From Deltaproteobacteria bacterium (GTDB taxonomy: Bacteria > Desulfobacterota > Binatia > UBA9968), in the NCBI GenBank assembly GCA_023250495.1, contig JAHFAP010000011.1, forward strand, positions 1 through 33,041: a stretch of DNA of 33,041 bases, read 5' to 3'. A program made the translations under genes and the position numbers. Positions 21,583 to 26,069 of this stretch are shown piece by piece. Each line of letters opens with the position of its first letter. Position 1 is the stretch's first letter. The notes beneath the pieces are model-generated. The model was not told where the DNA came from and ran no database searches. It worked only from the letters and a program-made list of their open reading frames with translations.

Positions 21583-23451
<1,869 letters not shown>

Positions 23452-23552: not shown

Positions 23553-23629
23553 GGGCCCATAGCTCAGCTGGTTAGAGCCACCGGCTCATAACCGGTAGGT
23601 CCCTGGTTCGAATCCAGGTGGGCCCACCA
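23553..23629 (+). tRNA. tRNA with CAT anticodon, most likely tRNA-Ile2 (lysidine)
   Basis: Full cloverleaf: GGGCCCA/TGGGCCC acceptor, GCTC/GAGC D arm, ACCGG-CTCATAA-CCGGT, CCTGG-TTCGAAT-CCAGG, encoded CCA. C4-G69/C5-G68 pairs and position after rpoD favour Ile2 over Met. Confidence 0.93.
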
Positions 23630-23651
23630 AATTTTTGCTCCGCGAAAATTT

Positions 23652-23811
23652 AGAGCATTGGAGCATGGGACAATGGAACATTAGGCCAGTGTGACAATGC
23701 GGTCTACTGATCCATTGTTCTATTGGTCTCCGTTTTGAGACCAAGGGTCCATTCGACAATGGAACATTGGAGAATGTGTCCAATGCGGTCCACTGATCCA
23801 CTGCTCTATTG
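23652..23811. repeat. Octamer-period palindromic element, copy A
   Basis: gagcattg gagcatgg gacaatgg aacattag...; two internal units 86 bp apart; central TTGGTCTC/GAGACCAA hairpin; 23693-23797 matches 25209-25313 at 104/105. Confidence 0.85.
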
Positions 23812-23865
23812 CTCGCTCGCTTTCCCCGCTTTCATTTTCTGAGCATCAGTCAAATTTCTATTGCT

Positions 23866-24024
23866 CTACTGCTCGCGTTTATCCGTACTCTTAATCAGCG
23901 CTGTGAGCATCTTAGACAGAACTTCCAGCTCCGCCTTCAGATCCGCGCACTTCTCCTCGGTTATCAACTTTTCGCGTTTGCAAAGCTCCAGCACGGGTAC
24001 GCACTCGAAGGCAGACCCTCGGGC
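23866..24024 (-). pseudogene. 3' half of a four-helix-bundle protein gene (23S rRNA IVP / TIGR02436-like)
   Basis: Hand translation ARGSAFECVPVLELCKREKLITEEKCADLKAELEVLSKMLTALIKSTDKREQ* fits the family's ARGSxxE...L..I/L.KML..LI pattern. The 5' half is replaced by IS sequence. Not in the ORF track. Confidence 0.75.
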
Positions 24025-24026
24025 AT

Positions 24027-24380
24027 TGAACTCGTTCAGATACATGTGAGAAAGATTTGAGTTAAAAGGGAGGGGTTCTTAAGGAGAACCTCTCCATGAC
24101 TTTCTTTGGACTGAATTGGCAATTCAACTGGGTATCTCGATACGGCAATGTCGAGCTGACACCTAAGGAGCGGGATCGGCTGAGAGCCCTAGCACTGTGG
24201 CAAGAAACTAAGGATGTAAAGCTAGTCTGTCGCACCTTCCAGATGAGCCAGGCTACTCTGTATCGGTGGCGCAAGCGCTTCAATCCTCACGATCTGGGAT
24301 CACTCAAGGAGCACTGCCGTTGCCCTAAGCACGTACGCTCTGCTCGCGACGGACCGCGCTGTCGACAGAGTTGCTTTTGA
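24027..24380 (+). mobile_element. Truncated IS481-like element: putative left end plus N-terminal HTH of transposase (ORF 24096-24380)
   Basis: RLRALALWQ...VCRTFQMSQATLYRWRKRF...GSLKEHCRCPKH resembles an IS481-type N-terminus; no DDE core; putative end TGAACTCGTTCAGATACATGTGAGA at the four-helix gene breakpoint. Confidence 0.65.
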
Positions 24381-24484
24381 ACCGAAACCGTTTCGGTTTT
24401 TGTGGGACTCCGTGGAGTGAAAGCGGGACTTTTAGGGATGATGGTGAGAGGGGCGCTTTTCTTTCCGTGCTGGTTCGAATCCAG
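24381..24484 (+). repeat. 104-bp direct repeat copy 1 (att-like arm + tRNA T-arm core)
   Basis: 94/104 identical to 25017-25120, ungapped; begins with palindrome ACCGAAAC-C-GTTTCGGT and ends with CTGG-TTCGAAT-CCAG. Confidence 0.9.
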
Positions 24485-24576
24485 AACCTTTTTTAAGGTA
24501 CCCCCCTCTCGGTCTTATTGCGTCGGTAACGCATCCTATGGTATTGTCCACTTGAACGAACCGACAGGAAAAATCC

Positions 24577-24792
24577 ATGGCTCACAAATACCTGGTCACT
24601 CTGACTCAAGGGGAAGACGGTTACATCGTGGCAGAGTGCCCCTCCCTTCCGGGATGTGTCTCTCAGGGAAAGAGCCGCGAAGAGGCCCTTAAGAACATCC
24701 AGGAGGCCATCGAGGGGATTGTTGAAGTCCGCAAGGCCCAGGATCTTCCTATACCTTCCCCTGACATCGTAGAGATCAGCGTAGCCGCTTAA
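24577..24792 (+). CDS. hicB: HicB family antitoxin (short form)
   Basis: EDGYIVAECPSLPGCVSQGKSREEALKNIQEAI. Confidence 0.92.
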   Translation: MAHKYLVTLTQGEDGYIVAECPSLPGCVSQGKSREEALKNIQEAIEGIVEVRKAQDLPIPSPDIVEISVAA

Positions 24793-25010
24793 TGGCCTCG
24801 CTCCCCGTCATCTCGGGCCGAGAGGCGGTCAAGGCATTCCAAAAGCTAGGTTTTCTTTTCCATCACCAGAGAGGAAGCCACATAATTCTCTACCACGCTA
24901 ACGGGCGGCATCTCTCCGTCCCAGATCACAAAGAACTCGACCGGGGAACTTTGAGAGCACTCATCCGCGGGGCTGGCGTCACGGTGGATGAGTTTGTAAA
25001 GCTGCTCTAG
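24792..25010 (+). CDS. hicA: HicA family toxin (mRNA interferase)
   Basis: LPVISGREAVKAFQKLGF...QRGSHIIL...VPDHKELDRGTLRALIR; TAATG coupling to hicB. Confidence 0.92.
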   Translation: MASLPVISGREAVKAFQKLGFLFHHQRGSHIILYHANGRHLSVPDHKELDRGTLRALIRGAGVTVDEFVKLL

Positions 25011-25016
25011 CGAAAG

Positions 25017-25129
25017 ACCGAAACCGTTTCGGTTTTTGTGGGGCTTCGTAGGGTAAAAGCGGGACTTTTGGGGATGACGGTAAGAGAGGCGCTTTTCTTT
25101 CCGTGCTGGTTCGAATCCGGGTGGGCCCA
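25017..25129 (+). repeat. 104-bp direct repeat copy 2 extended by the tRNA 3' acceptor strand (attR-like)
   Basis: Copy of 24381-24484 continuing as GTGGGCCCA, the tRNA 3' end without CCA. Confidence 0.9.
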
Positions 25130-25167
25130 GAAAATAAAAAGCCCGGGTTCCCGGGTTTTTTATTTTC
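25130..25167. terminator. Bidirectional Rho-independent terminator after the displaced tRNA 3' end
   Basis: GAAAATAAAAAGCCCGGG-TT-CCCGGGTTTTTTATTTTC inverted repeat with A and T tails. Confidence 0.8.
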
Positions 25168-25337
25168 AGAGCATTGGAGCAGTGGAGAGTGGAGCAATGG
25201 GTTGGGGCGACAATGCGGTCTACTGATCCATTGTTCTATTGGTCTCCGTTTTGAGACCAAGGGTCCATTCGACATTGGAACATTGGAGAATGTGTCCAAT
25301 GCGGTCCACTGATGTACTGCTCGTGTTGATCCGTACT
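25168..25337. repeat. Octamer-period palindromic element, copy B, with 3' tip of the four-helix-bundle gene
   Basis: Colinear with copy A at offset 1516; 25315-25337 matches 23867-23889 at 21/23. Confidence 0.85.
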
Positions 25338-25523: not shown

Positions 25524-26069
25524 ATGGCAAGCACTAATGTTCAGTTTCAATCGGTCGAGTCAAACGAGCAGACGACTCCGGTCCGGATCAAAAAGATCGG
25601 TCACGTGGTGTTAAGCGTTAGCGATATCGAGCGGAGCAGCAAGTTCTGGACTGAGATCATGGGCTTTAACTTCTCCGACCGGAACGAAAACGGCATGGTC
25701 TTTTTCCGCAACGCGACGGATCATCATACCATTGCGCTGATTCAAGCTAAGGAAAAAAACGAACTGCCCAAACGAGGGCAAGTGGGGTTTGATCATATGG
25801 CCCTTGAGGTCAGCAGCGTTTCGGAGCTCTTCAAGATTCGCGACTTCCTGCGCTCCAAAGGCGTCGAGATCTTTTATGAAGGACGCCGCGGACCTGGGGG
25901 GAATCCGGGCGTCGAATTCTACGATCCAGACGGTTATAAGATTGAAATCTATGCTGCCATGGATCAGATCGGCACCAATGGCAAAAGCCGCCCGGCTAAC
26001 GAGTGGAAGCGCGCCACGACGCTCGAAGAGGCGGTGGCGAATCCTTTGCCCGGAGCCAAGTACACCTAG
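25524..26069 (+). CDS. VOC family protein (glyoxalase / extradiol dioxygenase-like)
   Basis: KIGHVVLSVSDIERS..FWTEIMGF, DHHTIAL, FDHMALEV, FYDPDGYKIEIY. Confidence 0.88.
   Translation: MASTNVQFQSVESNEQTTPVRIKKIGHVVLSVSDIERSSKFWTEIMGFNFSDRNENGMVFFRNATDHHTIALIQAKEKNELPKRGQVGFDHMALEVSSVSELFKIRDFLRSKGVEIFYEGRRGPGGNPGVEFYDPDGYKIEIYAAMDQIGTNGKSRPANEWKRATTLEEAVANPLPGAKYT

Follow-up and report, generated by a model that had tools for sequence, protein, structure and literature searches.

A hicBA toxin-antitoxin pair between two att-like repeats behind a tRNA(CAT) gene: a probable remnant of tandem tRNA-integrated islands

The 33,041-nt stretch of DNA analyzed here (the window) is one entire contig, JAHFAP010000011.1, of a metagenome-assembled genome (MAG) with a completeness of 82.85%. 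At 23553..23629 on the + strand it carries an intact tRNA gene with anticodon CAT and an encoded CCA end (ARAGORN; Rfam tRNA, 71.4 bits). Downstream of this gene lies a hicBA toxin-antitoxin (TA) pair, enclosed in a 636-bp unit between two copies of a repeat that is made up of an arm followed by the T-arm core of a tRNA. The tRNA gene begins 101 nt past the stop codon of rpoD, which ends at 23451, an arrangement retained in related genomes, and it is the presumed integration target, on the attL side, of the elements discussed below. ARAGORN calls it tRNA-Met(CAT), one of three CAT tRNAs in the MAG, another of which is initiator-like. A first-pass annotation, made from the sequence alone, had labeled the gene tRNA-Ile2, an identity returned by no tool. 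That the gene is of the Ile2 type is nevertheless plausible, and its C4-G69 and C5-G68 pairs agree with the recognition pattern of TilS.

The T-arm core, CTGGTTCGAATCCRG, occurs three times on the + strand, at 23603, 24470 and 25106, against a mean of 0.01 matches in 100 shuffled sequences, none of which reached three. Core copy 1 (23603-23617) is part of the intact tRNA. Core copy 2 (24470..24485) consists of T-stem, T-loop and T-stem only and has no acceptor strand. Core copy 3 continues into the 3' strand of the acceptor stem, without CCA (25106..25130), and to all appearances represents the displaced original 3' end of the tRNA (attR); positions 25106-25129 are identical to tRNA positions 51-74 at 23 of 24 sites. 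It runs into a GC-rich hairpin flanked by A and T runs (25131..25164, + strand), which is the native terminator of the tRNA and is 88-91% identical to the sequence right after the tRNA in the related genome G026. Both tRNA 3' fragments (24470-24485 and 25106-25130) lie on the same strand as the tRNA at 23553-23629, that is, in direct orientation. The first-pass annotation had described the three cores in this way, with only the third leading into an acceptor strand and a strong terminator, and our analysis agrees with it. Core 2, together with an adjoining AACC and six T residues (24472-24494), also forms a terminator-like hairpin (stem GGTTC/GAACC, loop GAATCCA, then TTTTTT); what is left of the T-arm here may thus serve to terminate transcription in front of hicBA.

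Cores 2 and 3 are each preceded on the + strand by an arm, arm 2 at 24381..24469 and arm 3 at 25017..25105, the latter starting 6 nt past the hicA stop codon. Alignment of 24381-24484 with 25017-25120 gave 94 identical positions out of 104, the differences being 10 transitions and no transversion, exactly as previously described; a repeat search reported the same duplication as 102 nt at 91%. Both arms open with the palindrome ACCGAAAC-C-GTTTCGGT, followed by a T run, and the palindrome and two boxes claimed earlier were read in the sequence: in arm 2 the hairpin occupies 24381-24397 and the boxes are GTGGGAC (24402-24408) and GCGGGACTTTT (24423-24433). These are the only two copies of the arm in the whole MAG.

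Between the repeats, the list of open reading frames (ORFs) and Pfam searches revealed only hicB and hicA. Their upstream region (24486..24576, + strand) comprises about 32 nt of unique sequence and then a promoter-like stretch resembling that of hicBA homologues; a promoter consensus scan of this region called no promoter, the stretch having been read directly from the sequence. The intact hicB antitoxin gene (24577..24792, +; 71 aa; Pfam HicB_lk_antitox/UPF0150, PF15919, 9.2e-08) is adjacent to the intact hicA toxin gene (24792..25010, +; 72 aa; Pfam HicA_toxin, PF07927, 1.6e-17), whose start overlaps the hicB stop. Compared with its homologue in the related genome G017, HicB is identical at 65 of 71 residues and hicB at 174 of 216 nt, with 30 synonymous and 6 non-synonymous differing codons; HicA is identical at 59 of 72 residues, with 29 synonymous and 13 non-synonymous differing codons. 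These codon comparisons indicate that hicBA is under purifying selection. Neither an arm nor a tRNA repeat lies beside the hicBA homologues of G017 and G014.

In line with the first-pass annotation, which had seen no integrase at the locus, no ORF matching Phage_integrase was found between 23630 and 25130. When three island integrases of related genomes and two HTH (helix-turn-helix) proteins encoded next to arms were searched against the MAG with tblastn, the only matches were one of 22% identity on contig C2 and the expected antisense match to the tRNA. Because the MAG is 82.85% complete, absence of an integrase from this genome is not established.

Left of arm 2 are traces of decay, comprising two pseudogene stumps, and the beginning of a second duplicated block, all of which were absent from the first-pass annotation. 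Downstream of the intact tRNA come an AT-rich hairpin (23630-23648, +) and copy a of a dispersed repeat, D1 (23649-23806, +), both of them chromosomal-type sequence. They are followed by the C-terminal fragment of a gene for a four-helix-bundle protein (23S rRNA-intervening-sequence protein), a pseudogene with a 59-aa ORF at 23866..24045 on the - strand. This fragment covers profile positions 65-105 of 106 in PF05635, under the curated cut-off, and retains about 52 of the 121 residues of its homologue in G026; there, the full 121-aa homologue stands at the same place after tRNA(CAT), with 89% nucleotide identity over 164 nt. Next comes the N-terminal HTH fragment of an insertion sequence (IS) transposase (24096..24380, +; 94 aa; Pfam HTH_23/HTH_28/HTH_Tnp_1), truncated right at arm 2. 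Residues 1-79 of this stump match open frames of G037, six in number and 318-356 aa long, at 61% identity (five frames) or 58% (one); the only frame scanned, of 339 aa when counted from its first start codon, contains HTH_32 and rve_3. Arm 2 thus adjoins a transposase that was cut after residue ~79, at about a quarter of its length. The 62 nt just upstream of the stump (24029-24090) recur at 92% on another contig of the MAG (C213:19002-19062) and may be an IS end or a solo scar; no transposase lies beside the C213 match.

The second duplicated block pairs D1 copy a with copy b (25165-25322), which is 158 nt long and 90% identical to it and follows the hairpin after core 3. The two copies differ by 9 transitions and 7 transversions; their central ~105 nt are nearly identical, and their ends differ. 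Copy b merges into the last codons of the four-helix-bundle gene (25305-25337; the whole piece is 25165..25337, +), and homology to the left copy stops at 25337, where the upstream region of a glyoxalase-family gene (25524-26069, Pfam scan) starts. Counted from the core, the duplication thus spans 23603-23889 and 25106-25337 and takes in the core, D1 and the last codons of the four-helix-bundle gene. The native tRNA(CAT) of G026 likewise has no encoded CCA and leads straight into the same terminator and D1, and the flank after the intact tRNA of the window (CCA, AT-rich hairpin, D1 copy a and four-helix-bundle gene) is the native type of G003 and G025. Both flanks therefore look chromosomal, the one after core 3 matching G026 and the one after the intact tRNA matching G003 and G025, so that at least one rearrangement besides integration is required.

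D1 itself is dispersed. The hairpin and D1 are also found after a tRNA-Ala gene and after a tmRNA-like (transfer-messenger RNA-like) 3' end on other contigs of the MAG, and after tRNA(CAT) in G003 and G025. Units of this family are about 86 nt long, are rich in CATTGGAGCA and CAATGGAAC words and stand right after the hairpin at the 3' ends of stable-RNA genes: in the MAG, with copies at C30:133-238 and C205:2081-2173, after tRNA-Ala(CGC), the tmRNA-like 3' end and tRNA(CAT), and elsewhere after the tRNA(CAT) of G003, G025 and G026. They often adjoin a gene for a four-helix-bundle 23S rRNA-intervening-sequence protein and have the look of repetitive extragenic palindromic (REP) sequences or of miniature inverted-repeat transposable elements (MITEs).

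The arm is one member of a family: a search of 60 related genomes located its first ~60 nt at 16 places in 10 of them, with 77-85% identity. The conserved 60 nt consist of the hairpin ACCGRAAC-S-GTTYCGGT with its T run, followed by GYGGGA and GCGGGACTTTT boxes; the hairpin shows compensatory changes (ACCGAAAC/GTTTCGGT versus ACCGGAAC/GTTCCGGT). A degenerate arm pattern detected 11 further loci in MAGs titled Candidatus Binatia, Deltaproteobacteria or Syntrophobacter, and the host lineage of the arm family is probably Candidatus Binatia. After removal of identical copies, 17 distinct arms of relatives were available, and a T-loop pattern was sought within 300 nt of each. It was found for 11, at a distance from the hairpin of 147-149 nt in eight arms, 141 nt in two and 172 nt in one; six gave no match to the pattern, and one of these has higBA inserted before the tRNA fragment. 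Each of the 11 T-loops is followed by an acceptor strand and most by CCA, and at least four different tRNAs are represented. No sequence conservation was seen among relatives in the stretch between boxes and core. In both arms of the window the hairpin-to-T-loop distance is 92 nt, about 55 nt below the family norm of 147-149 nt. Because they have this short spacer in common, the two window arms are either copies of each other or the ends of two elements of the same sub-lineage.

ARAGORN detected no tRNA at the arm-linked 3' ends of relatives. Since, in addition, arm and core fold no better than shuffled sequences and have no Rfam match, these ends are displaced tRNA fragments rather than genes. 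At one of the loci (L025:12856-12955, at the end of contig G001:C863) two arms stand back to back with one common hairpin, in all likelihood an inverted-repeat artefact of the assembly rather than a biological feature.

Where the context is complete (L023 and L062), the arm lies at the far (attR) end of an island that carries a tyrosine integrase gene beside an intact tRNA; the first-pass annotation had advised looking for an integrase co-occurring with the arm, and these two islands provide it. The L023 island is about 9.2 kb long. It starts at tRNA-Pro(CGG) with a gene for a 431-aa integrase (Phage_integrase and Arm-DNA-bind_2) whose 3' end overlaps the tRNA; the cargo comprises, in order, an HTH gene, DUF1902, a CHC2/DUF3631 primase, further genes and a leftward HTH gene, and the right end is formed by the arm, a 28-nt repeat of the tRNA-Pro 3' end and an M48 peptidase gene. 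L062, on a 750-kb contig, holds the orthologue of the window's tRNA(CAT), a split integrase gene, 9 kb of cargo (9.2-kb island), the arm and a tRNA fragment. A second element with an intact 426-aa integrase begins directly after this fragment, and a third tRNA fragment follows 3.2 kb further on. L062 is thus a tandem array with three cores at the very tRNA(CAT) of the window, with its integrases present.

The L023 and L062 integrases are 45% identical over their full length, indicating that one integrase family serves different tRNA targets while having the outer P arm in common. This suggests integrases with a common arm specificity and a diversified core specificity. The three integrase genes concerned (L023:2855-4150, L062:1102-1896 and L062:10305-11585, all on the - strand) have their 3' ends across the att core: at attL they run antisense through the 3' part of the tRNA, and within the tandem array they extend into the spacer that separates arm and core of the island before. 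Because the 3' end of the gene crosses the core, the C-terminus of the integrase varies with the integration state. This arrangement, seen only in the islands of relatives, can be likened to that of Mx8 IntP and its attP; the C-terminus of Mx8 IntP depends on the integration state, according to the account in PMC4383910 and the title of its reference 24.

The tRNA(CAT) site was found in several other states among relatives. In G007 it is empty, tRNA(CAT) and the glyoxalase-family gene being 327 nt apart versus 1,895 nt in the window, where synteny is broken. In G025, a 153-nt scar resembling the 3' end of an integrase gene, in a stretch that includes a run of N, lies between tRNA(CAT) and a 60-nt tRNA fragment. 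G002 has a 1.1-kb islet bounded by 27-nt repeats, with higB identified by Pfam and a higA-like gene recognized by eye only. G019 has a 4.4-kb island with MazF, archaeo-eukaryotic primase (AEP) and helicase pieces, none of whose seven ORFs matches Phage_integrase; the same holds for all eight ORFs of a 4.2-kb island in G062. Two unpublished genomes, neither of which is needed for the conclusions, add a 3.1-kb insert with a Y1 transposase at tRNA(CAT) (G004, which also gave one match in the search with the transposase stump) and an arm plus tRNA(CAT) 3' fragment beside a serine-recombinase fragment (G010). From these states, the tRNA(CAT) site emerges as a hot spot of island arrival and decay, with TA genes as frequent survivors.

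Two further small TA cases are in keeping with this. In G003, a 1,011-bp islet (L049:2317-3412, contig G003:C114) with tRNA-Lys(CTT) on one side and a 55-nt repeat of the tRNA's 3' part on the other contains only hicBA, 70% identical in DNA sequence to that of the window, and no integrase. Its arm motif differs from that of the window, TTGTCCGTG being found near both ends; a motif of the TTGTCCGTG type also lies beside a truncated integrase gene after tRNA-Ala in L033. In G030, higBA, identified by eye from the translation, stands between an arm and a tRNA fragment.

Taken together, these observations make it likely that the locus is a decayed remnant of tandem tRNA-integrated islands, kept by hicBA and similar to a cis-mobilizable element (CIME). 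Islands would have integrated site-specifically, one behind another, at the 3' end of tRNA(CAT) downstream of rpoD. Each arm plus core would represent an attR-type junction, in which the P arm of the island is followed by the T-arm of the tRNA with the crossover; the earlier description of the repeats as att-like is thereby upheld, as recombination at the tRNA T-arm would give precisely such junctions. The GCGGGA boxes would be the arm-type sites, probably bound by the N-terminal arm-binding domain of the integrase. Subsequently, the integrase and nearly all cargo would have been lost, bacterial deletion bias removing everything but hicBA, and what remains would be two attR-type junctions, the stumps of the IS transposase and the four-helix-bundle gene, the duplicated downstream flank of the tRNA and the intact hicBA pair. 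We infer that, most likely, events took this order and hicBA survived through addiction, since loss of an addiction module is counter-selected. The 636-bp unit has putative att sites on both sides and no recombinase, and could at most be moved by the integrase of an incoming island; hence CIME-like is the best name for it. The first-pass annotation had named the decay of tandem islands as the alternative to its own proposal, and this alternative fits better than a cassette system, because in a relative this tRNA carries precisely such an array, three cores in tandem.

Several features sit uneasily with a history of island decay. The 636-bp unit is very compact and free of pseudogene debris, with about 32 nt from core 2 to the promoter-like stretch and 6 nt from the hicA stop to arm 3; it could stem from one clean deletion or from long trimming, or could equally be a natural mini-element. 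The unusually short spacer common to the two window arms implies that they are not the ends of two unrelated islands, and both arms start exactly at the hairpin, each after the end of a + strand gene. The middle core has no acceptor strand, whereas the attP-type middle site of the tandem array in L062 retains it. The duplicated tRNA flank, with D1 and the 3' end of the four-helix-bundle gene, is not explained by simple integration, and several scenarios fit the order of events behind it. Finally, integrase-less islets that contain only TA genes recur (hicBA in G003, higB with the by-eye higA in G002 and the by-eye higBA in G030), and they could be a real class of small hitchhiking elements.

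The first-pass annotation had proposed that a minimal 636-bp circle (core, hicBA and arm) was inserted by an integrase acting in trans at a pre-existing attR-like site, as one cassette of an undescribed integron-like array. The layout arm-core-cargo-arm-core-acceptor is indeed what insertion at attR would give, the core shows the known anatomy for T-arm crossover, with T-stem inverted repeats around a 7-nt T-loop, the unit is compact with exact hairpin boundaries, and islets with nothing but TA genes are seen more than once at tRNA genes (G003 and G002). Nevertheless, we regard this proposal as unlikely. There is just one unit, the tblastn search of the MAG detected no integrase of the family, and arm 2 adjoins a truncated transposase, a junction left by rearrangement rather than the edge of a cassette. 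Where the context is readable, arms of relatives end islands of ~4-9 kb, the other arm loci being near contig ends or unresolved, and the variable small cargo units that had been expected between arm copies were not seen: no array of small cassettes lies between arms among relatives. It had been conceded that arms confined to the ends of large integrase-bearing islands would speak against cassettes, and this is largely what was found, some of the islands being integrase-less remnants. Moreover, neither an exact 31-mer of arm and core nor a 28-nt degenerate pattern of the window's arm variant had a match in the public collections metagenome_contigs and genome_contigs, which may omit records of the window's own genome. 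The contigs of four sequencing runs assembled by Logan, our source of read evidence, contained no circle joint (a step back of 636), although such contigs drop rare forms. A wider version of the idea, that a Binatia-type lineage carries TA pairs as miniature integrase-less att-flanked units (in the window, G003, G002 and G030) moved in trans by the integrases of resident islands, we hold to be quite unlikely.

The arm-core duplication might also have arisen by unequal homologous or illegitimate recombination without any site-specific step, through the same rearrangements that duplicated the tRNA flank and truncated the IS. Such a process would account for the second duplicated block, from the core through D1 into the four-helix-bundle 3' end, and for D1 copies whose ~105-nt centers are nearly identical while their ends differ. 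It would also accommodate a related strain in run X2, in which arm 3 has the arm-2 states at arm positions 54, 62, 66 and 71, suggesting exchange between the arms or a strain polymorphism. On the other hand, the repeat stops on its right side where the T-stem ends, at the position expected for a site-specific crossover, and a relative has a tandem site-specific array at the same tRNA; purely non-site-specific duplication is accordingly rated as very unlikely. Two further explanations strike us as extremely improbable. One is that arm and core encode a structured RNA whose 3' end is tRNA-like, which would suit a conserved module at a fixed distance from T-arm and acceptor with compensatory changes in its hairpin; the folds, however, are no more stable than those of shuffled sequences (z-scores +0.93, +0.30 and +1.32), no Rfam family other than tRNA reached its gathering score, ARAGORN gave no match there, the stretch between boxes and core is not conserved, and the 3' ends copy whichever tRNA stands at the other end of the island. 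A reading of the arm as a pseudo-tRNA was also considered: a MAFFT alignment of arm and tRNA body showed only weak similarity and was judged uninformative, and this reading was rejected in view of the folds and Rfam. The other is an assembly artefact, a natural concern in a MAG contig with ~100-nt repeats open to mis-joining. The arms differ at 10 positions, however, and separate unitigs of run X1 (23942-24409, 24380-24481 and 24453-25117) match at 100% with a depth of 21-22, joining the transposase stump to arm 2 and, separately, the flank of core 2 via hicBA to arm 3 and core 3. As X1 is possibly the source sample, these unitigs do not count as independent support.

Remnants of tandem islands of this kind are already known, and the locus does not represent a new integron-like system. 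Both CIMEs and a model of accretion in three steps have been documented (Pavlovic 2004 and Bellanger 2011, as summarized in PMC5704250). As in the accretion described there for ICESt1/ICESt3, elements line up behind one another at the 3' end of their target gene, and integration into attR extends the array (PMC5704250). In the window, arm and core lie on both sides of hicBA as candidate att sites, the left one without acceptor and both with spacers about 55 nt below the norm. The window unit differs in being far smaller (636 bp, a TA pair only), in its left site without the acceptor part, in the lack of a functional partner element and in its uncultured host. A second precedent is the ssrA locus of Dehalococcoides, for which PMC3146451 describes tandem arrays and 15 islands without an integration module. 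There too, islands stand in tandem downstream of one stable-RNA gene, each closed by a direct repeat of its 3' end, with insertion in the T-loop and a conserved motif just upstream of each repeat, but the recombinase is a serine recombinase, DsiB, and the target tmRNA, whereas here arm-binding tyrosine integrases and several tRNAs are involved (PMC3146451).

T-stem attP sites are given as a major class among tRNA and tmRNA islands in PMC4383910. Islands of the Islander type discussed in that source have an intact tRNA and a displaced 3' fragment in direct orientation, can form tandem arrays and may have integrase genes across attP, all of which applies here as well; Islander, however, requires an integrase and at least 2 kb, and the window unit, with neither, would be filtered out (PMC4383910). 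Among the matches listed in a search of the literature on genomic islands or integrases in Binatia, there was no mention of this lineage.

Mobile integrons contain small single-operon units, each ending in a recombination site, and TA cassettes are common in chromosomal integrons. The window unit is likewise a small single operon ended by a recombination site. It differs from integrons, in contrast, in that the window has no intI, attI or Pc, and in that it holds one unit with its own promoter-like region rather than an array of promoterless cassettes. Nor is there a folded single-stranded site of the attC type: the arm-core folds have z-scores of +0.30 to +1.32, and the anatomy is that of arm boxes plus core.

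By itself, the locus is nothing unusual: island traffic at a tRNA hot spot has left a scar. It does offer a clean example of a TA pair that has outlasted the rest of a decaying island, as in parallel cases among relatives, and the conserved P-arm module (hairpin and GCGGGA boxes) can be used to delimit islands in fragmented MAGs. If TA units were after all moved in trans at tRNA-derived cores, they would constitute a small cassette platform at tRNA genes, functionally parallel to integrons, and the mobility of such small units would be a new way for TA modules to spread.

Two contigs from the sequencing runs point to related forms of the locus. One contig of X1 (depth 6.3, 24 letters on its shorter side) links 23629, at the end of the tRNA, to 25382, in the upstream region of the glyoxalase gene, so that 1,752 nt are skipped; it probably derives from a related population of that sample whose site resembles an empty one, and is a weak hint only. 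A contig of run X4 follows the arm sequence up to 24452 and, after 5 other letters, continues with a T-loop and a flank of the CCA-and-hairpin type, which suggests a relative in which attR adjoins that type of flank.

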